From positions 1 through 64,000 of the IMG/VR virus record IMGVR_UViG_2700989400_000004: 64,000 bases of DNA. One strand, written 5' to 3'. Below the pieces are notes generated by a model. It saw nothing but the letters and a program-made list of their open reading frames with translations. It ran no database searches and had not been told where the DNA came from. The position numbers and the translations under genes were made by a program. This DNA comes from a virus (taxonomy: Duplodnaviria > Heunggongvirae > Uroviricota > Caudoviricetes). Below, one piece after another: positions 1-12,667 of this stretch (the first letter of the stretch is position 1; every line of letters starts with the position of its first letter).

Positions 1-201
1 TCATCGTCTCGGTTTGTCCGGTTTCCGCCACTGATACGGCCTCACAACATCATGCTGGTGGCGTTCCTGTTGCAGCACAACGGAAACAGGCACTGAACAC
101 CTGTTAATTTTGCTTCGTGGCGGCTTGATTCCGGTAATGCTGCGGATCATCTCCAGCAAATCGGCTTCGGTGATGGTCATGGCTTTCCTGTCAGCACTCA
201 T
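1..201 (-). CDS. hypothetical small protein
   Basis: Complete 66-codon ORF with stop at 1-3; internal ATG (MTITEADLL) preceded by GGAAAG; no motif recognised. Confidence 0.25.
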   Translation of the reverse strand: MSADRKAMTITEADLLEMIRSITGIKPPRSKINRCSVPVSVVLQQERHQHDVVRPYQWRKPDKPRR

Positions 202-229
202 ATCACATTAATACGTTCATTACGATGGA

Positions 230-814
230 TTATCCCGTTTTAGTGACTAACCATTGCAGAATAACGATAATTAAATATGTTAATGTACCAGTTCCAAGAA
301 GTATTAATAATTGATAACAACGTAGAGCAATATTACTAATCGATTTTTGCATTACGATATTCACTAACTCAGCCACACACTCTTTAGATCTTATCGATAG
401 AATGCTTGGAACTTCTCTATTTATTGATAATATTTCACATTGAATAGACTCACCTGGTGCGAGGCTTTCAAGCCTGATAATATAGCGACCATCCTTTTCA
501 ATATTTTCTTCAACATGGTGGACAGGCCAAAAATTAATATGCATTGGCTTATAGTTAAAAACCAATGATATATTAGTAGCACTTTCTCGCCCTTCATTAA
601 CAAGAATAATCGATCGTGTATACACCAATTGTGAGTTAGATATTACTTCACCACTGGTGTCCCGTAATGGTTCATGAACAAGAAAAGTAAATCCATGCTG
701 ATAACCATAGGATAACTTTGCCTTGCTTTTAAATCTGTTATTCAGCATCCATGTAAAAATAGCAATAAAAAAAGAAAATATTTCTTTCCCATAAAGACTA
801 AAAAAACTCATCAC
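230..814 (-). CDS. hypothetical membrane protein with hydrophobic segments at both termini
   Basis: 194 aa ORF in markedly AT-rich DNA; hydrophobic N- and C-terminal stretches; no family recognised. Confidence 0.45.
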   Translation of the reverse strand: MMSFFSLYGKEIFSFFIAIFTWMLNNRFKSKAKLSYGYQHGFTFLVHEPLRDTSGEVISNSQLVYTRSIILVNEGRESATNISLVFNYKPMHINFWPVHHVEENIEKDGRYIIRLESLAPGESIQCEILSINREVPSILSIRSKECVAELVNIVMQKSISNIALRCYQLLILLGTGTLTYLIIVILQWLVTKTG

Positions 815-929
815 AAACTTCCCTCAGTAACCTGATTCTGTTGTTAAAGTTACCAGCACTATAGTCATTCATTCACATTGCGACAAGAAGGTTACAGCAC
901 GCTCAATCACACCTCAGAAAATCTTAGAG

Positions 930-1146
930 AAGGTTGACACACTTGACACTTTTCCGCGAAAAACCTTAACAAAACTTAGCATTTCTAAGCATGGCAACTT
1001 GACACTTTTCGCGATTTTTTCTGCTTTTTGATGTGGCAAACATGGCGCAAGACCAGTAATGACGGGGCTTACAGCGAGGTTGACACTTTTTCGTGTTCAG
1101 AGTGTAAAGTGTCAACCTTGCAAGCTGCTCAACTTGACACTTTTTG
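930..1146. repeat. cluster of TTGACAC(TTTT) repeats: five direct copies plus one inverted
   Basis: Direct copies near 933, 943, 999, 1080 and 1134; inverted GTGTCAA at 1110; seen directly in sequence. Confidence 0.6.
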
Positions 1147-1152
1147 CGGCCG

Positions 1153-1695
1153 TTAATGACCTGTTTTCTCCCATTCAGCCAGGGCGTTTAGTCCTGCCTC
1201 GCTCCATGATTCAAGTTCATCAGGATAATCACCTGCAACATAGCAGAGTTCACAGCGCAGCATACGAATTGCCAGCCTGGCATTACCCCGCAAATTGTAT
1301 TGTTCAAAGTAATGCTGTCCTTCATCATCCTCAAGGCAGATAGCACCATCATCAAGAAAGTGTGCTTCCCAGCCTAATTCCCCGGCTGCATCCTGCACAC
1401 ACTGCTTTATGTCATCGTCCGTTACTGGCGCAGGAATTTTACCGTCTCTGTCCCTGACAGCTTTCCAGAACTCGCCCCACGTCATTTCCAGCGTTCTCTC
1501 AGGCCACATTTCAGAAACAGTGTCTTTTCCCTGTGATGGTGGGCTGTTTCGCCACTCTGTCGCCTCCATATCAATTTTTTTACCCGACATGACCACCTCG
1601 CCTTTCTCGATCCAGTCGTAAACTGTCTGGCGGCTTACACCTTTGTATTTGGCGTATTCGGCTTTACTCATCAACATGTGGCTCACCTCATGCAT
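1153..1695 (-). CDS. helix-turn-helix DNA-binding protein (Nu1/excisionase-like N-terminal HTH)
   Basis: N-terminal MSKAEYAKYKGVSRQTVYDWIEKGEV resembles winged-HTH of small-terminase/excisionase-type proteins; start uncertain. Confidence 0.45.
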   Translation of the reverse strand: MHEVSHMLMSKAEYAKYKGVSRQTVYDWIEKGEVVMSGKKIDMEATEWRNSPPSQGKDTVSEMWPERTLEMTWGEFWKAVRDRDGKIPAPVTDDDIKQCVQDAAGELGWEAHFLDDGAICLEDDEGQHYFEQYNLRGNARLAIRMLRCELCYVAGDYPDELESWSEAGLNALAEWEKTGH

Positions 1696-1776
1696 ATACG
1701 ATAAACATTCACTTCATGCGAAAAAGGAATTCGTTGTGGGTATGGCGGAGAGGGGCAATCACCGCCCCTTGCGGAT

Positions 1777-2049
1777 TCAGTTACGCCAGGATGGCTGGCT
1801 AAGCGTGGTTTTCATTACATCGTTGACGACCTGTTTTACGATTTCTGTGTTGGCAGTCGTGCTTTCAACATCAACAAAACCATAATCGCCAATTTCCACC
1901 GTCAGAGATTCCAGTTTTTTCCCCAGCGCGTCTGGCAACTCTCCACTGAACCGGTGCTGAAGATTTTCCACCAGCAACGCCCTGAATGCCTCGCTGTTCT
2001 CTTTTTTCTGCCATAGCTGGCGTTTATCCACTCTGATATTTAATTTCAC
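1777..2049 (-). CDS. hypothetical acidic protein
   Basis: 90 aa ORF; start overlaps stop of upstream small gene (ATGA). Confidence 0.35.
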   Translation of the reverse strand: MKLNIRVDKRQLWQKKENSEAFRALLVENLQHRFSGELPDALGKKLESLTVEIGDYGFVDVESTTANTEIVKQVVNDVMKTTLSQPSWRN

Positions 2050-2213
2050 AGTCTCACCTCTTTAAGTGCCTTATCCATCAGTTGCCGGGCTATAACATGA
2101 ATTGACGGTGCCACACCAAGCACAGATTTCTGACGCTCTTCGTCCTGGATGCGTTGCAGGGCTTCGATCTGCCTCCGGGAAAGTAAAACTGGCTTTACTC
2201 CGTGATTTTTCAT
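2046..2213 (-). CDS. small ribbon-helix-helix-like protein
   Basis: 55 aa from internal ATG; beta-strand then two helices pattern (KPVLLS / RRQIEALQRI / APSIHVIARQLM). Confidence 0.35.
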   Translation of the reverse strand: MKNHGVKPVLLSRRQIEALQRIQDEERQKSVLGVAPSIHVIARQLMDKALKEVRL

Positions 2214-2302
2214 GATGATCCCTTCTGAATGACAATAATTGCAATTATTGCAATTATTGAAATGATACCAGAGACAATTGCAATAAATGAAACGAAAAGC
2301 AT
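2210..2302 (-). CDS. small hydrophobic peptide (30 aa)
   Basis: MLFVSFIAIVSGIISIIAIIAIIVIQKGSS; AAGGTTGG Shine-Dalgarno upstream; stop overlaps next start. Confidence 0.25.
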   Translation of the reverse strand: MLFVSFIAIVSGIISIIAIIAIIVIQKGSS

Positions 2303-2491
2303 CAATAAACCAACCTTCGGCACTGAATGCTCTGATTTTTCTGCAAAGGTATGGCAGATGTTGGTGCATGCAAACATAAAGGCAATAGCAGAAGAAGCTG
2401 CGGGGAGTGAAAAGGGGAAGTTTTTATAAATACACGATTGTCGCCTCACTGCAGGTTAACAGCCACAAGCTCCATGATAATAACTTGTTAA

Positions 2492-2815
2492 TTATTTCAT
2501 CAGATTTTTCATTATTTGCGCGATTGAGTACACAAGCAAAAACTCGGCAGCCGCAAGAGTATAAAAAACATAAATTCGCTTAGCCCACCGACGATGAAAG
2601 AACTCCTCAGCATGGCCGGATGTTCGAGATACAAGCCATGCACCTACTGCACACAGAGCAGGTGCAATGAGCACAGTTATAAACCAGATTGTGATGCCCA
2701 TCCCATGCCTACTGATAATAGCCATTGGTATTGCAAAAATGAATGTTAGAGCAGCATTAGCTAATAGAATATCTTTTAAAGTATTTTCAATTAGTTTTGC
2801 TAGATTATCTTTCAT
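2492..2815 (-). CDS. hypothetical multi-pass membrane protein
   Basis: 107 aa, several hydrophobic helices, AT-rich. Confidence 0.4.
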   Translation of the reverse strand: MKDNLAKLIENTLKDILLANAALTFIFAIPMAIISRHGMGITIWFITVLIAPALCAVGAWLVSRTSGHAEEFFHRRWAKRIYVFYTLAAAEFLLVYSIAQIMKNLMK

Positions 2816-2844
2816 CTAATCCCCCACGTTGAACATTAATATAT

Positions 2845-2865
2845 AAAAGCCCCTTACTAAGGGGC
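2845..2865 (-). terminator. rho-independent terminator after lipoprotein gene
   Basis: GCCCCTTA/TAAGGGGC stem followed by T-tract on minus strand. Confidence 0.55.
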
Positions 2866-2879
2866 TTTGCACGGATTGT

Positions 2880-4022
2880 TTAAAGGGAACTTTTTTTCGC
2901 CCCTTCAATTTCTGCCTGACAAATTTCGTCATTTGTAAATGAGTACTGCAGATAGACATATCCCTGAGTGGAATTGTTCGCTCTGGCCTCAATAGATATA
3001 GTATCAATATTGTTTTTTAATGGTATTTCTTTTGTTCCCTTCCATGTGGCAGATAAGAAGCGTTCTTTTTTGTTTAGCCCCCTCATCCAGTCCTGAGGAT
3101 CTTTCCAAATTGAACCAGCCAGCAAAAAGTCTGTAGTATCAGCCTTTCCATACAGAGAACTTAAAGAATTACTCAATTCTTCAAACTTTGATTTAAGAGC
3201 CAATCCATAGCTATCAGTATCAATATTTTTTCCTAAAGCCCGTATTTGACATAAACCAGCTTTCGGGGAGATCAGCAAACCATACATTTCAAAATCTGCG
3301 TTTTGCTTCGGTAATTTATCAGAAGTATACAGATTCACACTGTCTGGTAGTGGCTTGAGCTTAGCACCGATCATATCTTCGATGTTTTTCTGTGTAAGAC
3401 CGGCTTCTAAGCCAAACGGACCATCCGCTGGCGGGAGTAAAGGAAGTTGCTCTTGGGAATTTTTGGCTGTTACTTCCGTTTCAGTACTGTTTTTTGCGTC
3501 ATTAGCTTGTACTGATGCCAGCTTAACTTCAGCGAGGCCATACTTGGCTGTGAGGTACTTTTGCTGCAACATTGCCATGGTCTGCTCTTCAGTGGCAACA
3601 GTAGATAATTTTAGTACCTTTATCAGACCACCACTATACTGACGAGCATCAGCTTTGGCTTCGTTGATTTTTGCATCTAAGCTGTCAATTTCAGTTTTAA
3701 TTGAAGCCGCAAGCTCAGGATCAGGTTTTACTCCAGATACAACAACATCAATTTTGGCACCTGATTCAATAGCATTAATACGCTGTTCCAAAAGCGCTTT
3801 ATTAGTTCCTAATATTTCCAGTCTTGCTGTTGTCAGATTTTTTATCAACCCACCAGAAAACTGCTGGTCAACTTCCTTAGCTGCTGATATTTCACCTTCC
3901 GTTTGCGACAGTTCAGCTTTAAGAGCAGCTACTTCCTGTTTCTGTTCTGGAGTTAACTCTTCTGGCCCACATCCGGTTAACATTACTATACCGACTAATG
4001 TTGCAATTAAAGTTTTATTCAT
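2880..4022 (-). CDS. lipoprotein with repeated QxxSGGLIK motif
   Basis: Signal peptide plus lipobox LTGC; 380 aa; two copies of (Q/R)Q(F/Y)SGGLIK. Confidence 0.6.
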   Translation of the reverse strand: MNKTLIATLVGIVMLTGCGPEELTPEQKQEVAALKAELSQTEGEISAAKEVDQQFSGGLIKNLTTARLEILGTNKALLEQRINAIESGAKIDVVVSGVKPDPELAASIKTEIDSLDAKINEAKADARQYSGGLIKVLKLSTVATEEQTMAMLQQKYLTAKYGLAEVKLASVQANDAKNSTETEVTAKNSQEQLPLLPPADGPFGLEAGLTQKNIEDMIGAKLKPLPDSVNLYTSDKLPKQNADFEMYGLLISPKAGLCQIRALGKNIDTDSYGLALKSKFEELSNSLSSLYGKADTTDFLLAGSIWKDPQDWMRGLNKKERFLSATWKGTKEIPLKNNIDTISIEARANNSTQGYVYLQYSFTNDEICQAEIEGAKKSSL

Positions 4023-4156
4023 ATCCCTATTCCAAATGAAAATATTCAGATTAATCTTATCAGGAACCCAGATGCAATTGAATATTCATCTGCTCAGCAA
4101 CGTAGTAGATTTCCTCAGAAAGCATCAACAAAAAACCAAGAGAATCCCATCCTCTG

Positions 4157-4444
4157 TTACTGACTACAATTGTTCTTTTTTTGGTATTTCCTGAATGCCT
4201 CACCATTGGGCTGATGTAATCCCATCCCGGCATGTGCCCGGCTGATGGTTTCGCGCATCTCCCCGAAATTATCCTGCCTTGCTGGTGGGCGTGCTGCCTT
4301 GTGGATACATTCCGCGCGACGTTTTGCCGCCTGTTCCCGTGCCTTGTCATCATTCGCCAGCATGATGACCTCAGCCCACCGCGCCGCCGCTCTCCGGTAC
4401 AGTCCACGCGCTTCCAGTGCTTCCGCTTTGCTGTCGTGAATCAT
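4157..4444 (-). CDS. PerC family transcriptional activator
   Basis: 95 aa; N-terminal MIHDSKAEALEARGLYRRAAARWAEV typical of PerC-like proteins of P4-like elements. Confidence 0.6.
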   Translation of the reverse strand: MIHDSKAEALEARGLYRRAAARWAEVIMLANDDKAREQAAKRRAECIHKAARPPARQDNFGEMRETISRAHAGMGLHQPNGEAFRKYQKKNNCSQ

Positions 4445-4998
4445 GCGCCTGTTTTCTCCCTGGCTGCCCGGCGCTGGCGTTTGCGCTTCTCATTCAGCGC
4501 CATCAGCCGCATTTCTGCCTCGTTCTGTTTCTGTGGTGTCACCTCGCCGCACGGCTGGCCTTTCAGGTCATAGCGCACCCCACCAGCCATTAAGGCGCGG
4601 TAATAGCGCGGACACTGCGCATAAGATGCCAGCGTCGCACGTAATGCCCCTGGACCGAATGCCAGCCCCCTGACGGCGATATCCTGCATCAGGTCGTCGA
4701 ATATCCCCACCTTAAGTGGCTTCGGTGCTTCCCGGCTGAATAATTCAGGCCACAACTCAGTGAGACGGTTAACGCGCCTGCGGTTTTTGCGCTGGCGTTT
4801 GGTCATATGCCGCCACGGTGTCGCCCCTGTGGGCTTCTGCTGCGCTTTCTGGTTACCGGGCATCACTTTATGTGCCGATGTGGTTTTATCCTGCTTCTGT
4901 GCCGCCTGCGTCGTTTTCTGCGGCGTGCCGTAAATACCTTTCGGTTTTCTGTTAATGGTCAGTTTTGTCATGCTCTGCCCCATCATTGTTGCCGTCAT
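4441..4998 (-). CDS. ProQ/FinO-domain RNA chaperone-like protein
   Basis: LKVGIFDDL, RATLASYAQCPRYYRAL and RYDLKGQPCGEV align with the ProQ N-terminal domain (LKIGIFQDL, RSALRLYTSSWRYLYGV, RVDLDGNPCGEL). Confidence 0.6.
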   Translation of the reverse strand: MTATMMGQSMTKLTINRKPKGIYGTPQKTTQAAQKQDKTTSAHKVMPGNQKAQQKPTGATPWRHMTKRQRKNRRRVNRLTELWPELFSREAPKPLKVGIFDDLMQDIAVRGLAFGPGALRATLASYAQCPRYYRALMAGGVRYDLKGQPCGEVTPQKQNEAEMRLMALNEKRKRQRRAAREKTGA

Positions 4999-5149
4999 AT
5001 CGGCACGTAAAAATAAAACAGTCTCATTGTCAGTTACCTGTCAGCTTTTATGCCTTTTCCGGGTGGGATGGCTGACAGTAGTCAATCGTAATACAAAATT
5101 TGAACAACCTTTTTTTCTGTACTCTATAAGGCGTAAAAAAACATTTTTT

Positions 5150-5430
5150 ACCGGGATATCGGGATATAAACAAAAAAACCCCATTTATTTCATAGCGTTA
5201 TGTGATTTTTCATATCCCGCCATATCCCGGTAAGTTTTTTTTTGCTTATGCATCAATAAGATATTGCGGGATACATTCCGGGATACGGTTATTTTGTTTG
5301 TTTTACAACCACTCGTAAACCTAAATACCGGGATACGGCGGGATACAGCGGGATACGACAACAACACATAAATAACTGATATTTATGCAATATATTTTTC
5401 ATATCCCGATATCCCGCATATCCCGCGATT
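5150..5430. repeat. iteron cluster, about 12 copies of CGGGATA in both orientations (putative satellite replication origin)
   Basis: AT-rich 300 bp immediately 3' of the primase gene; direct and inverted CGGGATA/TATCCCG groups near 5152, 5210, 5265, 5330 and 5400. Confidence 0.6.
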
Positions 5431-5457: not shown

Positions 5458-7590
5458 CTATTCGTCTTCTGCCTGATCAATCAGCACGATAAATCGCTGC
5501 TGTGTTCCGTTAATCTTCACTGTTTTCGATGTCCAGCGACCAGGTTCTGCACAAACCAGCATTCCGGCTTCTTCCAGCGCCTGACACCCAAAGTTCCTGG
5601 ATATACCGCATAAAATTTCGCTATCAAACACTGACGGGATAATGTGATATTCGGGTTTTCCATCCTCACGCTTACCGCTGACAAGATAGCCTGCAAGATT
5701 GCTTATACGGGATGCATAGTGGTTATCCATATCCCCATTGCTTTTCCCGTAGGTATAAGGCTGAAAACGACTCAGGGCATGGCGCTGAATAAAGTCACGG
5801 GCGCGACTGATGACCTGATATTTTTCCCGGTTTTCCAGCCCGAAATCCTGTAGCCAGTCATCAAAAGCCCGTTGCGTTGCTTCCCGGCATTCTTCAGCTG
5901 TCCAGCCAGTAATTGCGGTGGCAAGCTCTCCGGCTGCATCCAGCATGGCGAATCGCGATGCCACTCGCCTTACCTGTGACGAGGCATTTTCAGGCAGATT
6001 TCCCAGCCAGGCATTTTCTTTATCTGAAGTGGTGTTGATAGCCAGCTCCTTGTGAGCGGATAACCAGCGCACCCACTCACGTCCCGCAGCGCCACAATAA
6101 TTTGATGAAAGTCGCTTTATGGCCCTGGCATGTTGATCACCATCGTCATAACCGTTAAACACCGTTGTATCGGTAAAGGGAATGCTTAGCAGTCGCACCA
6201 GTTGCCCTGCCTTTGGGGCAATTCCCCCTTTTAACAGGAAGGTTTCAAAATCTTCTTCTCCGGTGCTTAGTGCCGCTATTTTCCAGCGCATTACCGCACG
6301 ATTACCGCCGTCCTTGCGCCCCTGAATCCTGCCCACACCGTTAAACAGGCTGTAGGCGGATTGCGCAATGTCATTAACCCTTCCTCCCTGACCAATTTCA
6401 TCAATAGGGATAAAACCGTCATTACGTGCAGCTGCTTCCACTGTCAGCCCGTGCCGGGTGGCATCCCACGAGAGTTTAAGCATTTCAGGGTCGCCATAAA
6501 GGCTGGTGGCGGCCTCCACAGTCGTGGTTTTCCCCGCTGACGACTGCGCGAAAAGATGAATACCAAAACAACTACCACCCACAAGGGAATTTAGCGGGGC
6601 TGCCAGCCCGACCAGCACCCCAAGCATCATTGAGTGATTGCCACGCATCAGAGAAGCAACATTATTTCGCCATTCATGCACCGTGCCCCTGACAATATAG
6701 CCTTTGATGGCGGCAGATCCGCCGCAGAATGCTACGGGACGGTCAGGCACACCAATCACCTCGCCATCAGGCATAACATAGGCTCCACAATGCCAACCTG
6801 CTGTTGATGTGACCTCCCACACCGTGCGATCTCCATGACGTTGCAGGTATTCCGCCAGTTTGTTCAGTAAATGGGCACTGGTAGTGATTGCAACTCCCCG
6901 CCCACGTAATCGCGCCCATCCTGCGGGCATACCGATTTCATTGCGCGGCATCGCTTCGTAAATAATTTTTTGTGTCCCTTCCGGGATCATTTCAATGATC
7001 AGATACGCTTCCCTTCCGTCGTTACCAATACCTGCCGTGCGCATCCGGTCACTCAGCCAGGTTTCTTTATAATTCATCTCCTCTGCCCTGGTGTTGGGGA
7101 TTGGCTCGATATACCAGAGCGCCCCGTCTTTTTCGGTAATATGCGGTTTCATGGGGTCTGTTTTACCGGGTGATCCACCAGCTATTCCGATTCCTTCAGG
7201 AATGGTTTCCCCGCGCTCTGTCTGTTCGCGGATCCGTTGCAGGTAGTCGCGCCAGTTCTCCGGCTCCCGGTCGGTGATGCCTTTGTATAATTTCGCATCC
7301 TGTACGCCAGCCAGCGCCAGCTTTTCAGCGATAGCATTGATCTGGATTGGCTCTATCTCCCCCGCGATATAAACACGCGCAAAGCGGCGCTCATCGTCGA
7401 TAATGCGGATATTAGCCAGATCTGCCAGTTGCGTTGGCCCCAGGTAAACAGGTGGCACGTTATCGCCGTGTTTTCGTCCTTCGCTTTCAATCCAGTGTTG
7501 AGCATGGGCGTAAGCATCCGTCCCGGCAAAAATGATTACCTCGGTGAATTTATCCTTTGGCTGATATTTTAAATTCGGTGCGTTTTTCAC
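5458..7590 (-). CDS. primase/helicase replication protein (Toprim plus NTPase, P4 alpha-like)
   Basis: 710 aa; Walker A-like AQSSAGKTT; domain order typical of satellite primase-helicases. Confidence 0.8.
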   Translation of the reverse strand: MKNAPNLKYQPKDKFTEVIIFAGTDAYAHAQHWIESEGRKHGDNVPPVYLGPTQLADLANIRIIDDERRFARVYIAGEIEPIQINAIAEKLALAGVQDAKLYKGITDREPENWRDYLQRIREQTERGETIPEGIGIAGGSPGKTDPMKPHITEKDGALWYIEPIPNTRAEEMNYKETWLSDRMRTAGIGNDGREAYLIIEMIPEGTQKIIYEAMPRNEIGMPAGWARLRGRGVAITTSAHLLNKLAEYLQRHGDRTVWEVTSTAGWHCGAYVMPDGEVIGVPDRPVAFCGGSAAIKGYIVRGTVHEWRNNVASLMRGNHSMMLGVLVGLAAPLNSLVGGSCFGIHLFAQSSAGKTTTVEAATSLYGDPEMLKLSWDATRHGLTVEAAARNDGFIPIDEIGQGGRVNDIAQSAYSLFNGVGRIQGRKDGGNRAVMRWKIAALSTGEEDFETFLLKGGIAPKAGQLVRLLSIPFTDTTVFNGYDDGDQHARAIKRLSSNYCGAAGREWVRWLSAHKELAINTTSDKENAWLGNLPENASSQVRRVASRFAMLDAAGELATAITGWTAEECREATQRAFDDWLQDFGLENREKYQVISRARDFIQRHALSRFQPYTYGKSNGDMDNHYASRISNLAGYLVSGKREDGKPEYHIIPSVFDSEILCGISRNFGCQALEEAGMLVCAEPGRWTSKTVKINGTQQRFIVLIDQAEDE

Positions 7591-7877
7591 TTCTTACCTC
7601 CCGCAACCAACATTGCCCGGATTTTTTTAATATTCGAGGCTGCACGTCTTGCCACCGCCAATTGTTTGTTTTCCACCAGAATAAAATCACGCTCAAACTG
7701 ACGGCGCGGCATTACGCAGTCATATTCGTAAGCCTCACGGCGGTAGGTGATATTGCCTGGCGTAACGTGACGAATAACCACTCGTCCCCCACGTCTGGTG
7801 TCGCGGTAAATATCGCCAGAGCGAATTGCAGACCGAGAGAGGCCGCTGGCAGTAAAGCCAGAATTTTTCTTTTTCAT
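7587..7877 (-). CDS. hypothetical basic protein
   Basis: 96 aa ORF in operon with 4-nt overlaps. Confidence 0.4.
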   Translation of the reverse strand: MKKKNSGFTASGLSRSAIRSGDIYRDTRRGGRVVIRHVTPGNITYRREAYEYDCVMPRRQFERDFILVENKQLAVARRAASNIKKIRAMLVAGGKK

Positions 7878-7881
7878 GGTT

Positions 7882-8082
7882 TTATTTTCCTGTCAGCAGT
7901 TCCGGTTTTATTCCTGCACGAATACATAGTTCAGAAAAGCCTTCTACCGTACTTACAATTTCATTATTTCGCAGTCGGCATTGTGATTTCACTTTCCCTT
8001 TATCCAGGTAAACCAGTACGCGCCCGGTGAAATCATCTGGCACATTCAGGGTAATTGTCATTGTTGCTGGCTGATTACCCAT
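7882..8082 (-). CDS. hypothetical protein, one copy of FTGR...FSEL domain
   Basis: 66 aa; paralogous to the repeated domain in 8075..8440. Confidence 0.4.
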   Translation of the reverse strand: MGNQPATMTITLNVPDDFTGRVLVYLDKGKVKSQCRLRNNEIVSTVEGFSELCIRAGIKPELLTGK

Positions 8083-8440
8083 GACTTCCCCCCTGAATGA
8101 TCCGGTAATCGCAACGGGTCAGCAGTTCGCTAAATTCCGGCAGTGTTCCGAAACAGCAATCATCACGCAGCCGTTCGCGGGATACCTCGACGCCGTTTTC
8201 GTAGTGACTCACCATGCGTCCGGTAAAATGCAGATCATCATCGTGATGGTTCGTTAACGGCTTAATAAGTCGCGCACGTTCTGCCAGTTCCAGCAATGCT
8301 TCAACGCTTCCGGCAATTGCACCATCCGGCAGGTGATAATTACTTACCACGCGTCCATTCTCCACGTTAACCAGTAGCTGCTCGGTGAATTTCTCACGAA
8401 ACTGAATGCTGTTAAGGTCAGAAATTGACAGGTTATGCAT
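8075..8440 (-). CDS. hypothetical protein with two tandem FTGR...FSEL-type repeats
   Basis: 121 aa; internal duplication visible by eye. Confidence 0.45.
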   Translation of the reverse strand: MHNLSISDLNSIQFREKFTEQLLVNVENGRVVSNYHLPDGAIAGSVEALLELAERARLIKPLTNHHDDDLHFTGRMVSHYENGVEVSRERLRDDCCFGTLPEFSELLTRCDYRIIQGGSHG

Positions 8441-8798
8441 GGTGCACCTCCTGGCGAATACGGGCAGCGAATACCATCACGCAGCCATCAGGAGATTGCT
8501 GACGCGCTTCCTGTTCGCTGGTGGCCTCGATGTGAATTACGCGCGGTTGTGCTGTGCTCAGGGCGATAAAACGCCAGATAAAATTGTTCTCGCATTTCTG
8601 AATAAACAGCGTGTTTTCTTCGCGCCCTTTCCATGTTGCCGAGATATAGCCCATGTCATTGAGCATCTCGCAGGCATCAACCAGCGTATCAGCGGCTACG
8701 TGTACAGTGTTTTTACCGTCAGCTATGCAATCACGGTGCACCGCCAGGAAGGTGTATATAAATTTAGGGTGAGTTTGGGTATGCTGTGTTCCAGCCAT
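8433..8798 (-). CDS. hypothetical protein, first gene of leftward operon
   Basis: ATG at 8798 with GAGGT Shine-Dalgarno; 121 aa; same frame remains open upstream to 10019. Confidence 0.5.
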   Translation of the reverse strand: MAGTQHTQTHPKFIYTFLAVHRDCIADGKNTVHVAADTLVDACEMLNDMGYISATWKGREENTLFIQKCENNFIWRFIALSTAQPRVIHIEATSEQEARQQSPDGCVMVFAARIRQEVHHA

Positions 8799-8863
8799 AA
8801 TCGTTACCTCGTTTAACGGTTTGGTTAGACGCCCTGCATGTGTGCCACCACTGCGGGGCGTTG

Positions 8864-8898
8864 CTGTATATACACCACAATCATTAGTGTATATACAG
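8864..8898. promoter_or_regulatory. operator-like perfect inverted repeat CTGTATATACAC-N11-GTGTATATACAG
   Basis: 12-bp perfect arms seen directly; lies between divergent 8433..8798 (-) and 8989..9294 (+). Confidence 0.6.
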
Positions 8899-8988
8899 AT
8901 TAGATTTAAGTGTGCTACAGTGTCAAGTGTTTTATCAACACACCTTTTGGTGTAATGTGTACACACCTCAAAATAACCGGACATTCTG

Positions 8989-9294
8989 ATGGCAACAGGA
9001 AACATCAACAGCAGATCGCAAATGAAAAATATCCGCTTCCCCCATGATGTAATCGAGGAAATGGAAAATTCGAAAACGGAAGGGGAAACAATAGCCGCTT
9101 TCGTGATTACAGCCGTTCGCGGTGAAATCGCCCGCCGCCAGGCAGAAGGAAGCGGAGAAAATCCCCTGGTTTCTTCGCTCGATGCACTGGCGCAGGTGGA
9201 AAAAATCGGTGTCAAAGCAGCCGAGGAGATCGGGCAACTCGTCACCGTCGCGCGTGAAGAACTCCAGCGGCGCAAGGCCAAAGAACAGGAGTAA
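8989..9294 (+). CDS. putative Arc/Mnt-like ribbon-helix-helix regulator
   Basis: KNIRFPHDVIEEMEN...AAFVITAVRGEIARR resembles the Arc repressor fold pattern; conflicts with a long open frame on the opposite strand. Confidence 0.35.
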   Translation: MATGNINSRSQMKNIRFPHDVIEEMENSKTEGETIAAFVITAVRGEIARRQAEGSGENPLVSSLDALAQVEKIGVKAAEEIGQLVTVAREELQRRKAKEQE

Positions 9295-10011
9295 CCATCA
9301 CCAGCGCCGTGGTGTGAGGAACTACGGTGCATCGTTTTACAGGGCAGCGCCATGACCAACAAAGAATCAACCAATACACCATCACCGGCACGGAAAAGAC
9401 AGCGCAGAAAGATAGCGTACGAGCATGAGTCAGACAGATTCGCGCCCTGTGCGTTTATCCTTGAGAAATTCCTTAAAGAGTACAGGCGCACAAAAATGGG
9501 GTCGCATACCTGGAAAACATCGCGGCATGGCGATGTTAAAGAGCAGGAATAGCCCACCAGCAAGCCAGCATATTCACCATAATGACCCTCAGTTAAACCT
9601 AGAGTCATTGGTGCAAAGCTGACACATTGCCCACCAGCCGCAAATGTGGCATTGTTGGTGATGCGTTCAAGTATGTAGCTTTTCCACTGGCGGCTCTCTG
9701 CGGTCGCCTTTGTTTTATCCAGAACGAAATCAGACATCAGATTGATCAGCACCTGGCGACCTGACAAAATCGCATCAGTCGCGCCACCAGCAGTATTTTT
9801 TGCTTTCCGGACAGCTTGGCCAACTGCATTTTGCAGCAAAATATTCTGCATTTCTGGCTTACTGTGATAACAGTGATCAGCGCCTTCACTCTGTACGACC
9901 ACAACGCTATAATCTGCCTCGTAGACAGTAAGCAATATGGCGCAGTAAGCGACTTGTTCACAAAGGCGCTCCGGCAACGGGGCGCTTTTTCTTTTTGTAA
10001 CGGTCAGAGCA

Positions 10012-10812
10012 TTACACATGGCTGTTTTCCTCCATGCGACGGGCTAACCAACGCTGCGAAAGACGAATTAATTCAGCTTTCCGCTGGTGGTAGTCCTGGC
10101 CTAACTCAATCAGCGTGATATTGCTCTGCTCAAGGTAAGAAAGATGCTCAAGCTGCAACGTGCTCATGTGGTCGCGTGGTTCGCCTGTGATGCCGTTCGC
10201 CTGCGCCCACTGTTTTGCAGTCATGCCACCCAGCACGATACGCGCCAGCATATTGGCTTCCGTGGTGTAGTGGTGCTGTAGAGTGTTTTTACCCAGCTCA
10301 GCCCGGTACGCCTCCAGCGCGGCACACATTGGCTTAAAGTAGCTGGCAACTGTGATACGGGCTTTCAGTTCCCGGCGTAACACTGCGGAACGCACTGGCG
10401 CTACCTTGTGTAGCTCCTCCTCGCATTTGATAAAGTACTGACGAACGGCGCGGCCCTGTTCGGTGCGTTCGACCATCGCCAGTTCTTTCGCCATGTTCAC
10501 TGTGATGATGTACTCAAGAGCTGTTTGCTGGCGAGATTTTGCGCTCACCGGATCGGGTCGGCTCAAATATTCAACAACCTCATAATCCACGCCTTCCGTG
10601 AACCCGTATTCTTCAATGCGCCCCTTGATCCACGAACGGAAAACGCGCCCTACACCTAACGCCTTATGTAACGCTCTGGCGCTAACAATAGTGGTTTCAC
10701 GCCCACCAATAACGCCGGAAATAACCGGAATAATTTCAGCGAAATTTTGCAGATTCTGTTTTTCAGGCCGAACGAAGCCCCGCCCCTGTACAGGCGTATA
10801 TCCAGTATTCAT
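10012..10812 (-). CDS. phage antirepressor-like protein (Bro-N/AntA-type N-terminus)
   Basis: N-terminal IIPVISGVIGGRETTIVSARALHKALGV...EYGFTEGVDYEV. Confidence 0.6.
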   Translation of the reverse strand: MNTGYTPVQGRGFVRPEKQNLQNFAEIIPVISGVIGGRETTIVSARALHKALGVGRVFRSWIKGRIEEYGFTEGVDYEVVEYLSRPDPVSAKSRQQTALEYIITVNMAKELAMVERTEQGRAVRQYFIKCEEELHKVAPVRSAVLRRELKARITVASYFKPMCAALEAYRAELGKNTLQHHYTTEANMLARIVLGGMTAKQWAQANGITGEPRDHMSTLQLEHLSYLEQSNITLIELGQDYHQRKAELIRLSQRWLARRMEENSHV

Positions 10813-10864
10813 GGTTAAATCTCTGTATTAGTGGATGGGAGGCGGCTGTGTGCCGCCAGCCTGA

Positions 10865-11053
10865 TTAGTGAACTGCCTCGCGGCTGTCCTTCCATGCCAG
10901 AACTTCGGATAAAGACCAGCCAACGGAACGACCACCGAGTTTACGCCGTGATGGGAATTGTCCGGCTTTTTCCAGGCGGTAGCGGCATGAACGGCTCAGG
11001 CCTGTAAGTTGCTGACATTCTTTTTCACGTATAAAGCGATCTGTGCTTAACAC
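10865..11053 (-). CDS. alpA: AlpA family transcriptional regulator
   Basis: 62 aa; LTGLSRSCRYRLEKAGQFPSRRKLGGRSVGWSLSEVLAW is the AlpA-type HTH signature. Confidence 0.75.
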   Translation of the reverse strand: MLSTDRFIREKECQQLTGLSRSCRYRLEKAGQFPSRRKLGGRSVGWSLSEVLAWKDSREAVH

Positions 11054-11416
11054 AATTCCCCCTTTGTTGTTTCTTAAAGAGTCATTGGGTGGATTATTGG
11101 GTTGGGTCGGATTGTGTCAGGGTGTTTATGGAATGGCAAACACTGGTGGCGGTCGTTTTACAGAAGTGGGGTAATGAGAATAAAAACTTTTTTAATTCAT
11201 TGTGATGCAGTAGCGTAAAATTCTGTTTTTACGCCCTTTTTTACATGCTTTTAAGAGTGATTCGCCAATGTACAAAAAGCCAGTAAAACGACTGAAAATC
11301 AACTTTTTAGGGTGTCGGTCAGATGATAATCAAGTTTGTTCCAGATTGTTCGCCGTTGTTCGTCGTGGTGTCTCGTTGTTTCACGTTGTGTCCGTTCTGA
11401 AAAATCGCGAAAAAAA

Positions 11417-12667
11417 TTATATTTCTCTGGCTATTGGCAGTGTGGTTACGTTTTCGTGAGCACCTGCCAGTATCTCTAATCGCTCTGTCCACATATCCAG
11501 CGCGTTACGTTTCGCATCAATATAGCGGGAGTGGTTATAGACTCGTTGCATCCCTGGCATCTGGTGGGCGGTAAGTTGCTCGACAATATGCGGATCCACG
11601 CCTAAATCGTTCAGCATCGTGGTAAACGTGCGCCGTATATCGTGCAGGGACCAGTGAGGATGGTTTAATTTTTTGTGCGTAAATCTGCCGTATTGTGACA
11701 CGCTGGCTTCCTGTTTCAGTTCTCCGAGTAATAACCCTGTGTGCCTGTTCTGCTCCACCAGTTGCGTGACGAACGGCAAAATGCTTTCCGGTATTGGCCT
11801 GAATATGGCGACCTTCGTTTTGCTGTGTTCTTTCGGTACCGTCCAGAGCATTTCCTTAAAATCCCACTCCCTGATCTCCGACAGCCTCAGTTCTCCAGTT
11901 CGGCAGCCAAACACAATCAGGAGGCGGATTAGCGCGCTGTAGTAGGGCGGGAATATTTTTTTATCCAGCGCCTGTAATAATTCGCCCAGTTCTTTGTTAC
12001 TAAGCACGCGTTCGCTTATGCCTGGCTTTTTGCCAACGTCCACCACGTTGAGATCATCCAGAACGTTACTGACTGCGTAGCGACGTTTTCGGCAGAACTT
12101 AAGCGCCTGTTTACACGCCTGCATCATGTGACCAGACGTTACAGGGGATTTTTTGCGTATCCGGTCAAAACAGGCCAGCCAGTGACGTAACTCGCATTTA
12201 TCCAGTGGCATATTGCCAATATGCTGTATGACGTGATTATTCAGGCGGCTGTTCAGGGAGACGTAATCGACACGGTTTTCCTTTACGTGCATTTCCAGCC
12301 AGTAGCTGATCGCATCACCCACCGTTACCGGCTTTAGTGCTTCCTGTATGGAGTAATTAAGCTCATGGCGTGGATTTTTTCCTTCTGCCAGCCATGCGCG
12401 ACACTGTGCCGCTTTTTCCCTGGCTGCTTTCAGGCTCAGATCAGGATAATTTCCCAGCTTCAGGCGTTCCGGTGATACCAGGCGTCCAGCTCCTGCCCTG
12501 TAGGTGAAATACCAGGTTAACAAGCCGCTGGTGGAATGCCTGACGCTCAGGTTTCCACCGTCATTAAGAAATGTGGTTTTTGGGGCTGGTGTGCCGTTGA
12601 TTTTTCTTAGCTGTGTATCGCTCAGTTTGTTAAGTGCTCTGCTCATAATTTTGAATCCGGTCATCAC
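11417..12667 (-). CDS. int: tyrosine-type site-specific integrase (P4-like)
   Basis: 416 aa; N-terminal arm-binding-like domain and C-terminal catalytic region (HxxR...Y); start uncertain. Confidence 0.85.
   Translation of the reverse strand: MMTGFKIMSRALNKLSDTQLRKINGTPAPKTTFLNDGGNLSVRHSTSGLLTWYFTYRAGAGRLVSPERLKLGNYPDLSLKAAREKAAQCRAWLAEGKNPRHELNYSIQEALKPVTVGDAISYWLEMHVKENRVDYVSLNSRLNNHVIQHIGNMPLDKCELRHWLACFDRIRKKSPVTSGHMMQACKQALKFCRKRRYAVSNVLDDLNVVDVGKKPGISERVLSNKELGELLQALDKKIFPPYYSALIRLLIVFGCRTGELRLSEIREWDFKEMLWTVPKEHSKTKVAIFRPIPESILPFVTQLVEQNRHTGLLLGELKQEASVSQYGRFTHKKLNHPHWSLHDIRRTFTTMLNDLGVDPHIVEQLTAHQMPGMQRVYNHSRYIDAKRNALDMWTERLEILAGAHENVTTLPIAREI

Follow-up and report, generated by a model that had tools for sequence, protein, structure and literature searches.

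What is the role of a minus-strand reading frame that stays open for more than 500 codons while running through an operator and antisense to a repressor-like gene? Such a frame lies in the control region of the window (the whole 64-kb stretch of DNA that was analyzed), which belongs to the EcCICFT073 type of E. coli phage satellites (PICIs). Its genes for an integrase, AlpA, AntA, DUF4222 and a DUF927 primase lie on the minus strand and adjoin tRNA-Thr/proA, and int, alpA, a Bro/AntA zone and a primase/replication zone follow one another in a single orientation at a specific chromosomal site, which is the layout of a PICI. EcCICFT073 has the same gene order and switch, with all of the parts described here. 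In Gram-negative PICIs, AlpA is the induction route, no repressor was known and transcription has been described as unidirectional (PMC6092414). The best explanation of the region as a whole, with mechanisms that we infer, is probably that it serves an EcCICFT073-type PICI as its switch for immunity and induction, and that it is a variant of the P4 vis-eta/kil-alpha region. The frame and its minus-strand neighbors are the following:

10865 to 11053, minus strand: AlpA-family regulator gene, the first of the read-through operon (PF05930, E 3e-18)
10012 to 10812, minus strand: AntA/AntB antirepressor gene, the upstream partner coupled to the long ORF (PF08346, E 2e-23)
10012 to 10033, minus strand: start of the long ORF, with GGAGG, 9 nt and the ATG at 10019, overlapping the antA stop (ATGTGTAA)
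8433 to 10019, minus strand: eta-like bridging ORF, 528 codons from the ATG at 10019, uninterrupted between the antA stop and the stop of the Icd/Kil-like gene
8433 to 8798, minus strand: kil/Icd-like gene, 121 aa, the nested in-frame end of the long ORF, with the Shine-Dalgarno arrangement GAGG-N8-ATG (NF033153 at aa 73 to 116)
8897 to 8926, minus strand: predicted leftward promoter (PLE equivalent), TTGACA (8926 to 8921), 16 to 18 nt, TCTAAT/TAATCT
8829 to 8861: conserved GC hairpin in the kil/icd leader, with compensatory changes between alleles

As originally predicted, the minus-strand frame is open throughout 8433 to 10019 (536 codons if counted from stop to stop), passing through the operator and lying antisense to the plus-strand ORFs at 8989 to 9294 (101 aa) and 9352 to 9552 (66 aa). 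It is also open where no plus-strand gene lies opposite, at 9553 to 10011 and 8799 to 8988, while the other frames across the same interval contain 15 to 32 stops each. In approximately 105 related loci, the frame extends without a stop from the upstream AlpA-operon gene into the Icd/Kil-like gene or ends shortly before it, and in about 85% of them it continues to the Icd C-terminus; in the mapped exceptions, it ends 11 to 24 nt upstream of the icd ATG or overlaps the next ATG. Not one stop was found in 33,200 codons of the long frame (85 distinct intervals), compared with a density of 0.027 to 0.056 per codon across the five remaining frames, and none was found in a nonredundant subset (<80% identity; about 9.3 kb, about 3,100 codons) made up of unrelated modules from four genera, for which other frames would give about 5 stops per 100 codons. 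Tandemly duplicated switches keep the frame open for 653 to 819 codons, loci with in-frame AntA-ATG fusions retain it as well, and all of the indels, duplications and deletions seen among the related loci preserve it. A scan of genome contigs with the strict core pattern gave matches in E. albertii only, and the cross-genus loci were therefore obtained via the RHH protein. In these independent loci, the frame is open for 238 codons (Klebsiella), 302 codons (Yersinia) and 395 codons (Serratia type), and in EcCICFT073 it is open for 434 codons. Homologues with a stop-interrupted frame and no RHH gene had been named at the outset as evidence that would count against the prediction; in the approximately 105 loci and the other genera, the frame was open to, or nearly to, the Icd/Kil-like gene.

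At its downstream end, the frame merges with the kil/Icd-like gene, and in relatives the gene in or just ahead of which it ends heads the replication operon. The leftward gene start at 8798 held up well, with a GAGG Shine-Dalgarno sequence 8 nt upstream, coding-type substitutions extending up to 8798 and homology to the P4 kil start by BLASTP. RefSeq places the start of this gene at 8654, not 8798; PGAP mis-starts kil. The predicted leftward promoter sits inside the long ORF, and its -35 sequence CTTGAC is conserved in all alleles aligned; promoter scanning gave TTGACG-17-TAAAGT / TAAATT at the corresponding position in the Klebsiella and Serratia-type loci.

The gap between the plus-strand genes and antA, at 9553 to 10011, carries no RefSeq annotation. 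Two predicted promoter-plus-terminator units lie there on the plus strand, antisense to the 5' third of the long frame:

9622 to 9716, plus strand: predicted sRNA-1 unit, with an invariant block (9627 to 9655), a variable segment and a terminator hairpin (9689 to 9708) followed by TTTGTTTT (conservation, pairing)
9885 to 9999, plus strand: predicted sRNA-2 unit, with TTCACT-17-TATAAT (9885 to 9913) and a terminator (9962 to 9989) followed by a T-run (promoter/terminator scan)

The invariant block of sRNA-1 reads TTGCCC-N17-TGgCATTGT and can also fold as a hairpin. Its core, with conservation of about 84%, is present in 788 of the 5,426 E. coli genomes scanned (33 distinct copies). In the alignment, 92.8% of cells are paired, versus 28 to 55% when the alignment is slid; the terminator helix is 98% paired and includes a GC<->CG swap, and a strand test favored the plus strand (512/552 cells, versus 452/552 for the minus strand). 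For sRNA-2, the fold z score is -2.5, and in about 40 of 59 distinct loci the TATAAT keeps a fixed distance of 51 to 56 nt to the hairpin, whose stem shows compensatory variants. The terminators of both units are well supported. Along their full length, both predicted sRNAs are complementary to the 5' portion of the frame, and many relatives have them starting 6 to 9 nt after its ATG; in other loci, the Shine-Dalgarno sequence and ATG of the long frame lie 6 to 9 nt from the complement of each terminator. An Rfam scan of 7500 to 11500 returned no match at E<=1, so that the gap corresponds to no known RNA family, and literature searches for an EcCICFT073 repressor, sRNA or antisense RNA, for YlcI/YnfO and for the literal sRNA sequences found no description. 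Two other readings of sRNA-1 were rejected. The core is not a P4 CI or P1 c4-type RNA on the operon strand, since its G.U pattern and T-run place it on the opposite strand and the C4 model gave no match. Nor does the variable part pair allele specifically in trans with the icd leader, since cognate duplex energies were no better than noncognate ones (p = 0.99).

The segment at 9622 to 9716 could instead be only the terminator and 3' untranslated region of the RHH operon, or a regulator-binding DNA site, with the second hairpin as a back-up terminator that shields antA and alpA from antisense transcription. This would fit with the position of the core directly after orf66 in several contexts, with the lack of a strong consensus promoter called upstream of the core in the window (the sRNA-1 promoter is of weak consensus in E. 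coli) and with the generality of plus-strand gap terminators in other genera. However, the core is also present without preceding plus-strand genes (L004, L115, L116), and the invariant block retains -35 and -10 hexamers at 17-bp spacing, with a Klebsiella counterpart closer to consensus (TTGACC-17-TAATCT). The second unit, moreover, has a perfect TATAAT at its fixed distance in the approximately 40 loci, and TGATATAAT in EcCICFT073. We therefore consider a simple terminator or binding site unlikely and favor two antisense sRNA units as the predicted content of the gap.

Is the frame kept for the protein that it encodes? A coding-type substitution pattern was seen over 8441 to 8798 at the end of the frame, and upstream of kil, neither the N-terminal 100 codons nor the core nor the intergenic part showed constraint at the amino acid level. 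Across 9717 to 10011, substitutions at the three codon positions numbered 27/22/24 (synonymous, 0.29), compared with 37/29/86 (synonymous, 0.54) in antA, and substitutions in the conserved core hit codon positions 1 and 2 of the long frame. The N-terminal 150 codons (9560 to 10019), which had seemed protein-like at first, thus showed no protein-level selection, and searches with the N-terminal 154 aa of the ORF returned nothing meaningful in Pfam, NCBIfam, PHROGs or tblastn against phages. The 'conserved' peptide motifs of the long ORF coincide with the opposite-strand promoter and terminator hairpins. Its middle section, rich in Ser, Cys, Leu and Arg, is the antisense of a real gene.

These results bear on the possibility that the long ORF encodes a functional 528-aa multidomain mosaic 'Bro network' protein, in which a variable middle separates an N-terminal domain from an Icd-like C-terminus and whose domains have been swapped. 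P4 eta and similar ORFs have been treated in this way, as Bro-network proteins made from exchanged segments (PMC10111431). In line with such a protein, the frame is always open, its Shine-Dalgarno sequence and ATG are good, AntA N-termini are fused to it in frame at some loci and PGAP annotates 187- to 310-aa 'Icd-like' and 'ash family' proteins across it in some genomes. Against it stand the absence of amino acid constraint upstream of kil, the core substitutions at codon positions 1 and 2, the absence of Pfam, NCBIfam and phage matches outside the Icd part, the antisense origin and composition of the middle and the coincidence of the peptide motifs with elements of the other strand; furthermore, the frame stops just before the icd ATG in some of the exceptions, so that fusion to Icd is not required. 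A 528-aa protein is in our judgment quite improbable. The comparisons across loci instead indicate selection that keeps the 528-codon frame open, without conservation of the encoded protein save for the last 121 codons (kil/Icd-like).

The plus-strand cassette that the frame traverses, together with the sites around its promoters, comprises the following:

8989 to 9294, plus strand: RHH (YlcI/YnfO-family) candidate repressor, 101 aa (NCBIfam YlcI_YnfO_N)
9352 to 9552, plus strand: second gene of the rightward operon (orf66), 66 aa (phrog_21027, E 8e-33; moderate third-position bias)
8953 to 8958, plus strand: predicted -10 (TAATGT) of the RHH operon promoter, aligned by eye (TATACT in most alleles)
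8864 to 8898: candidate operator pair, two TGTATATACA, covering the leftward promoter from its -10/+1 into the early transcribed region
8910 to 8920: related site GTGTGCTACAG in the leftward-promoter spacer (sequence, analogy with other alleles)
8957 to 8967: related site GTGTACACACC at the -10/+1 of the rightward (RHH) promoter, a candidate autoregulation site (sequence, allele comparison)
8753 to 8762: 9/10 copy of the operator motif, inside kil/icd (motif scan)

The 101-aa protein has an N-terminal strand followed by two helices, matching solved RHH domains. It also aligned with Pfam PSK_trans_fac, which we take to be an RHH-clan family, although the score (E 0.0033, 18.8 bits) lies below the cut-off of 28.3. 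One UniRef name within its family is 'CopG family'. Of the earlier description as an Arc-like RHH protein, the ribbon-helix-helix fold stands, and the likeness to Arc does not, as Arc and Mnt are absent among the PDB sequence and structure matches. The perfect 12-bp inverted repeat first noticed in this region was confirmed (12/12 complementary; CTGTATATACAC-N11-GTGTATATACAG at 8864 to 8875 and 8887 to 8898) and resolves into two copies of a 10-bp perfect palindrome, TGTATATACA (8865 to 8874 and 8888 to 8897), spaced 23 bp center to center. The 64-kb window has no further exact copy; with up to one mismatch, there are five matches (1.8 expected), three of them within 145 bp.

Each of at least 12 RHH alleles has its own candidate operator repeats at conserved divergent promoters (for example, the motifs GTATATACA and GAAACACAC). 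The repeats overlap the -10/+1 and vary along with the strand region at the N-terminus of the RHH protein, while the CTTGAC -35 and TATACT -10 are fixed, and the same RHH allele is accompanied by the same motif despite different icd backgrounds (L011 versus L013). The palindromes might be bound by AlpA, the orf66 protein or a host protein, with the RHH protein otherwise employed, for example, as an antitoxin-like partner. Both the covariation of motif with RHH strand region at constant promoter elements and the way in which the motif follows identical RHH alleles argue against another binder, and a toxin gene is absent next to the RHH gene; we give this alternative little credence. The RHH protein is a candidate repressor that would act on the TGTATATACA sites, and the proposed satellite master-repressor switch is to this extent partly supported, through a candidate RHH repressor with allele-specific repeats at divergent promoters.

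The codon-usage and conservation comparison suggested at the outset was informative upstream of kil, where no protein selection was found, but uninformative for the RHH gene versus the antisense frame, because the two share their wobble position. A synonymous-resampling test was used instead. Antisense stops were present in none of the RHH genes (0 in 27/27 proteins), versus 1.2 expected per gene; synonymous sites of the RHH gene avoid antisense stops. That the open frame is an accidental, functionless shadow ORF antisense to real genes, as its third codon position in common with the RHH and orf66 genes and the low number of antisense stops (about 1.2 per gene) expected from RHH protein composition alone might suggest, is highly improbable, given that the frame is open also where plus-strand genes are absent, lacks stops in the nonredundant codons of four genera, survives all indels, duplications and deletions and always ends at the start or stop of the next gene.

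In the mechanism that we propose, the RHH protein of the quiescent island would bind the TGTATATACA sites and shut the leftward promoter, and the kil and primase operon would consequently be off. Once a helper phage turned on AlpA, transcription of the alpA-antA operon would read leftward, and ribosomes coupled from antA would translate the eta-like frame across the entire cassette. This translation would prevent premature Rho-dependent termination, as for P4 eta, and would bring ribosomes to kil/icd and the coupled downstream genes, while the leftward read-through would collide with the repressor operon and silence it. The two predicted cis-antisense sRNAs may block or uncouple translation of the frame, such that no leaky read-through would occur when uninduced. 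No C>G skew was seen as a sign of rut sites on the bridge RNA.

We tentatively suggest, as a possibility, that enterobacterial PICIs, including EcCICFT073, are under an undescribed three-layer switch. Its layers would be RHH repressors (at least 12 operator specificities; the 'missing' Gram-negative PICI master repressor); a frame of 220 to 819 codons, selected for nothing but its lack of stops, translated backwards through the repressor gene, promoter and operators, allowing AlpA-driven read-through to arrive at the replication genes, and measurably constraining repressor synonymous sites; and one or two previously undescribed cis-antisense sRNAs, carried by about 15% of the complete E. coli genomes, that gate translation of the frame. 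The analysis provides a concrete repressor candidate, with operators and an induction route, in the experimental model element EcCICFT073. The long frame would also be a clear case, found in nature, of an ORF under selection to be translated and not for its product, one that overlaps a whole opposite-strand gene cassette and leaves a detectable imprint on its codon choice. The reading is relevant to annotation, where PGAP labels the frame 'Icd-like', 'ash family' or nothing, and to the interpretation of mosaic 'Bro network proteins' in satellites, and with it come two candidate sRNA families, both frequent in E. coli and missing from Rfam.

Among known systems, the layout resembles that of Gram-positive PICIs (Stl/Rpr), in which a small repressor is divergently transcribed beside the replication operon, but the RHH protein is unrelated to Stl. 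Gram-negative PICIs have been described without a known repressor (PMC6092414), whereas the window has a candidate RHH repressor. Phage P22 immI (Arc, Mnt, ant, sar) and the window each combine, in one compact switch, small RHH repressors (a candidate in the window) with operators at promoters that diverge or overlap, a gene for an antirepressor and a short antisense RNA ending in a terminator (predicted in the window); however, Arc and Mnt gave no sequence or best-fold match, and the switch in the window controls a kil-primase replication operon. We know of no counterpart in P22 to a long frame translated through the repressor gene. In plasmid R1, the antisense RNA CopA blocks translation of the leader ORF tap, which is needed by coupling for the downstream replication gene repA. 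There, tap is a 24-codon leader peptide, whereas the PICI leader has 220 to 819 codons and overlaps other genes, and the function of the PICI sRNAs is one that we infer. The P1/P7 immI region (c4 RNA - icd - ant) also has genes of the Icd and antirepressor families together with small RNA control, and in work by Biere, Citron and Schuster in 1992, blocking translation of its upstream ORF reportedly led to Rho-dependent polarity downstream. The gene order differs, however, and c4 is encoded on the same strand with separate target sites, whereas the predicted RNAs of the window are cis-antisense, do not match the C4 model and lack allele-specific pairing to the icd leader.

The closest likeness is to phage P4, whose left operon is controlled by the promoters PLL and PLE, the Rho-dependent terminator timm and CI (C4) RNA immunity. 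To our knowledge, antisense sRNAs of the predicted type are not known in P4. The eta precedent was taken from the passage of PMC10111431 that concerns it and checked against the P4 sequence; as related in that passage after Forti et al. (1999, J Bacteriol 181:5225), eta and kil are nested genes, and eta translation prevents premature termination of read-through transcripts. In the P4 sequence, the kil frame is open from 8821 to 8168 (218 codons, compared with 528 in the window), with MMM at codons 19 to 21, giving 197 to 199 aa. P4 and the window share a frame that is open across the whole control region, a Kil/Icd-like gene that is the in-frame end of a longer ORF starting upstream of an internal early promoter, and the placement of that ORF next to a vis/alpA-type gene and upstream of the primase operon. 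In the window, as in P4, kil has its own start as the in-frame terminal part of the longer ORF, and the long ORF starts upstream of the predicted internal promoter, with its ATG overlapping the preceding gene of the vis/alpA operon. BLASTP of the window against P4 Eta aligned only 27 residues around the kil start, and the DNA of the switch showed no similarity. C4 and isrK (RF01695, RF01394) were found in P4, L004, L009, L058 and L079 as positive controls (61 to 82 bits) and were not found in 7500 to 11500 of the window, in EcCICFT073 or in the Klebsiella, Yersinia and Serratia-type loci. P4 thus differs in that the C4/CI immunity RNA occupies the slot in which the window has an opposite-strand repressor cassette (RHH and orf66, operators and divergent promoter), and the window frame is coupled to antA, not directly to vis. 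In P4, the CI (C4) and seqA (isrK-like) elements lie within the ORF on its own strand. New relative to P4 eta/kil are the length of the frame, 2 to 4 times that of P4, and its antisense course through a whole repressor cassette.

The switch lies on an island at tRNA-Thr, beside proA; E. coli E21845/O/A matches the window at 100% identity. On the minus strand, an integrase gene is followed by a hypothetical gene, an AlpA-type HTH gene, antA, a gap, an Icd-like gene, three small genes (one DUF4222) and a DUF927 primase gene, which is the layout of Gram-negative phage satellites (PICIs). From icd/kil to the primase, the genes form a nearly continuous chain, with stop and start codons overlapping or close together. 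Beyond the primase (window positions 1 to 5400; 1 to 5200 in the related locus L001), ProQ/FinO-family and PerC-family regulator genes are carried as cargo, with IS3 at the edge. A PerC-family gene is also present in EcCICFT073, the experimental model Gram-negative PICI, and in EcCIMP1, and repression of LEE by it has been reported (PMC11773190). Annotated and predicted features of the switch are listed below; RefSeq has no annotation at 9553 to 10011.

Features of the switch region
8433 to 8654, minus strand: Icd-like gene in its RefSeq version, 73 aa
8926 to 8921, minus strand: predicted leftward promoter -35 (TTGACA), with palindromes over its -10/+1 and the early transcribed region
8910 to 8920: related site in the spacer of the predicted leftward promoter
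8957 to 8967: related site at the RHH promoter
8989 to 9294, plus strand: YlcI/YnfO gene, RefSeq-annotated (the RHH gene)
9352 to 9552, plus strand: hypothetical gene in RefSeq, 66 aa (orf66)
9885 to 9913, plus strand: predicted sRNA-2 promoter TTCACT-17-TATAAT; terminator at 9962 to 9999, fold z = -2.5

The Icd-like start chosen by RefSeq/PGAP (8654, 73 aa) has no Shine-Dalgarno sequence and is probably wrong; the coding signal, a GAGG-N8-ATG arrangement and homology to the kil start of phage P4 favor 8798 (121 aa).

The openness of the long minus-strand frame is under selection and is not accidental. The original prediction of an open frame of 528 codons from 8433 to 10019 was borne out in the sequence. 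The first six related loci compared in E. coli each keep a frame of 219 to 536 codons open on the minus strand, between the 3' end of the preceding gene (AntA, Bro-N or HTH) and the Icd-like region; in five of the six it closes at the Icd-like stop, although the intervening DNA differs. A wider set, comprising 98 IMG/VR loci and E. albertii, was found with the conserved gap pattern. The frame extends to the Icd C-terminus (...FAARIRQ) in ~85% of ~105 loci, with lengths of 220 to 819 codons. Over 85 distinct intervals (33,200 codons, of which ~9.3 kb or ~3,100 codons are non-redundant at <80% identity), it contains 0 stops, compared with 0.027 to 0.056 stops per codon in the other five frames. 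Where whole switch modules are tandemly duplicated (L009, L028 and L079), the frame is still open, at 653 to 819 codons, and in deletion variants the AntA start codon is joined to it in frame. In the mapped exceptions, the frame ends 11 to 24 nt 5' of the icd ATG, at its Shine-Dalgarno sequence, or overlaps the ATG of the next gene. More divergent E. coli copies are likewise open, as are loci found independently via the RHH protein: a Klebsiella frame of 238 codons, opening 18 nt past the HTH stop and closing 11 nt before the next ATG; a Yersinia frame of 302 codons; and a Serratia-type frame of 395 codons that runs in frame into an Icd-like gene, where the other frames hold 14 and 19 stops.

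Among the loci with duplicated modules, some carry the RHH cassette plus a P4-type isrK+C4 cassette. At ~2940 to 3620 of L041, the bridging frame ends on a non-Icd gene (MAELTQKYLRETLHYDPETGVFTWRV..., AP2/HNH-like) in place of kil/icd, the two overlapping at ATGGCTGA. Variants without the RHH cassette occur in tRNA-Pro and yejM islands and in E. albertii (L004, L115, L116 and L106); there, the frame through the core, a conserved ~100-nt gap segment, is out of register with the Icd-like gene that it crosses and closes 11 nt short of the gene's end, in a region that PGAP names a truncated 'ash family protein'.

Distinct substitutions, with the window as reference, were classified in all six frames. 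Coding-type patterns were found in antA (0.54 synonymous; codon-position counts 37/29/86), in orf121, kil/icd from 8798 down (0.53; 17/17/42) and in the RHH gene (0.53; 17/19/51). The N-terminal 100 codons of the long frame were flat (73 substitutions; positions 27/22/24; 0.25 to 0.32 synonymous in every frame), as were the core and the intergenic part, and searches of Pfam, NCBIfam, PHROGs and phage genomes gave no homologue for the N-terminal part. Upstream of kil, the long frame shows no protein-level constraint. Because its wobble position coincides with that of both plus-strand genes, counts by codon position do not tell them apart where they overlap; as a substitute, synonymous codons of 27 distinct RHH proteins were resampled and antisense stops counted. 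Resampling gave 1.2 expected antisense stops per RHH gene and a P(zero) of ~0.28 per allele; zero were observed in 27 of 27. The repressor gene has therefore been shaped by the frame crossing it. Taken at the level of sequence, the long frame appears to be maintained solely for being open.

The 101-aa protein encoded on the opposite strand (8989 to 9294) belongs to the YlcI/YnfO family. In its AlphaFold model (pLDDT 83), an extended stretch at the N-terminus is accompanied by two helices and a long helix at the C-terminus; no significant match in the PDB came from Foldseek or from sequence searches, and the specific link to Arc that had been suggested was not found. The inverted repeat described between 8798 and this gene is present (8864 to 8875/8887 to 8898; 12/12) and is better read as two perfect 10-bp palindromes, TGTATATACA, with a spacing of 23 bp; the window has no other exact copy, and a copy matching at 9/10 positions lies at 8753 to 8762. 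Across at least 12 alleles, the RHH N-terminal region co-varies with a motif repeated two to four times, examples being GTATATACA (window), GAAACACAC, TGTGCGCACA, GAATCACA, GGATTCCA and GTCAGCCAC. The repeats surround the leftward -35 (CTTGAC) and the rightward -10 (TATACT; TAATGT in the window), both of which are conserved. The arrangement is that of an autoregulating repressor, in which the RHH protein would bind the repeats. The features described in the original prediction are confirmed and its interpretation as a switch is partly supported: the anatomy and the co-variation of operator and protein are seen in the sequence, while RHH binding and repression are putative.

The RHH protein occurs in a short (59 aa) and a long (101 to 103 aa) form with a common N-terminal domain and C-terminal RRQRRKAKEQE tail; the 42-aa helical insert of the long form (AEGSGENPLVSSLDALAQVEKIG...) might be an oligomerisation or helper-sensing module. 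The product of orf66 (phrog_21027) is very basic, and its gene is co-transcribed with the RHH gene and has a moderate coding signal. Between the two, at 9304 to 9330, a terminator-like plus-strand hairpin (10 pairs, then ATCGTTTTAC) may attenuate orf66 expression. In the kil/icd leader, a GC-rich hairpin (8829 to 8861) occupies an identical position in every switch allele. Its stems are compensatory (ACGCCCTG/CGGGGCGT, AAGCCCCG/CGGGGTTT, GAGGCTG/CAGCCTC), its G.U pairs are compatible with the plus strand only and, in many alleles, it has a T-rich tail; the hairpin might terminate a further plus-strand RNA that lies antisense to the icd ribosome-binding site.

The gap contains two predicted RNA units on the plus strand, with strand-specific structures. 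The core (9619 to 9718) recurs at ~84% identity in 788 of 5,426 complete E. coli genomes; its surroundings vary, and most copies lack annotation. The 33 distinct copies have in common an almost invariant block, differ in a segment of which at least six unrelated alleles exist, and carry a GC hairpin plus T-run. In a 24-sequence alignment, 92.8% of cells pair, against 28 to 55% with partners slid; the terminator helix is 98% paired and includes a GC-to-CG swap, and G.U pairs fit the plus strand better than the minus (512 versus 452 of 552 cells). The invariant block of the predicted sRNA-1 (TTGCCC-N17-TGgCATTGT; TTGACC-N17-TAATCT in Klebsiella) may be a promoter and also folds as a hairpin, with wobble-to-Watson-Crick changes, so that sRNA-1 would be ~55 nt if the block is a promoter and ~95 nt if it lies inside the RNA. 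The predicted sRNA-2 unit recurs in ~40 of 59 distinct loci, with TATAAT fixed 51 to 56 nt from the hairpin and compensatory stem variants. In many relatives, the Shine-Dalgarno sequence and ATG of the long frame lie 6 to 9 nt from the complement of a unit's terminator, an arrangement typical of antisense RNAs that control the initiation of translation. The sRNA-1 target of the window is deep within the long frame. The idea of allele-specific trans pairing between an sRNA and the icd leader failed when tested. Neither unit matched Rfam, and neither sequence was found in searchable papers. The int-alpA RNA (RF02996) was detected between the integrase and the following gene of a Yersinia locus (L109, 3263 to 3330; 37.4 bits); in the scanned part of the window (7500 to 11500), neither it nor any other Rfam family matched.

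We propose that the RHH protein would repress the leftward promoter, and that ribosomes moving along the eta-like frame through the cassette would sustain AlpA-driven read-through from alpA-antA, as in the P4 precedent. Such read-through would interfere with the repressor operon, and the antisense sRNAs would keep the quiescent state free of leaky translation and read-through. The composition of the bridge RNA gave no sign of a rut site, and two of the predicted promoters have low consensus scores.

Every part of the switch is present in EcCICFT073. Its frame runs 434 codons from the ATG of an AntA remnant to the Icd C-terminus (28 and 19 stops in other frames), opposite an RHH gene and a small ORF; both sRNA units are present, sRNA-2 with TGATATAAT, and GTGGGCCACACC repeats lie at the CTTGAC -35. 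The founding paper described Gram-negative PICIs as unidirectionally transcribed, with AlpA as the helper-induced activator, and called the existence of a repressor unclear (PMC6092414). In the literature searched on EcCICFT073 and YlcI/YnfO, no account was found of the cassette, the sRNAs or the long frame that runs across them. ORFs of this kind have been presented as domain-swapping Bro-network proteins, some with C4/isrK inside (PMC10111431).

The closest comparison is with phage P4, in which the ORF formerly named 'cI gene product' ends in a Kil peptide; this peptide aligns with the beginning of the Icd-like gene in the window. The P4 kil frame is open for 218 codons (8821 to 8168), from within vis (orf88) across PLE and the immunity RNAs, and three consecutive Met codons predict a product of 197 to 199 aa, reportedly the size of Eta in Forti et al. 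1999 (J Bacteriol 181:5225). In that study, kil is reportedly the terminal part of eta, which is said to be translated solely from the upstream PLL promoter; eta nonsense codons reportedly cause premature termination, translation blocking termination at the Rho-dependent site timm. In the window, kil is likewise nested in the frame with its own Shine-Dalgarno sequence and ATG, the frame's start overlaps the antA stop behind GGAGG, a leftward promoter is predicted inside it, and the close-set gene chain follows from icd/kil to the primase; in structure, the frame is eta-like. Unlike P4, it has no similarity to Eta upstream of kil, and the window lacks the C4/isrK RNAs, which lie directly upstream of icd in P4 and in four relatives (L004, L009, L058 and L079), accounting for the PGAP 'ash family protein' calls. 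Where P4 has its immunity RNAs, an opposite-strand cassette is found instead, both in the window and in EcCICFT073 and the loci from Klebsiella, Yersinia and the Serratia type. The feature is a new version of the P4 eta/kil control region, with a protein-repressor cassette and predicted antisense sRNAs embedded in the read-through frame, on the strand opposite to it.
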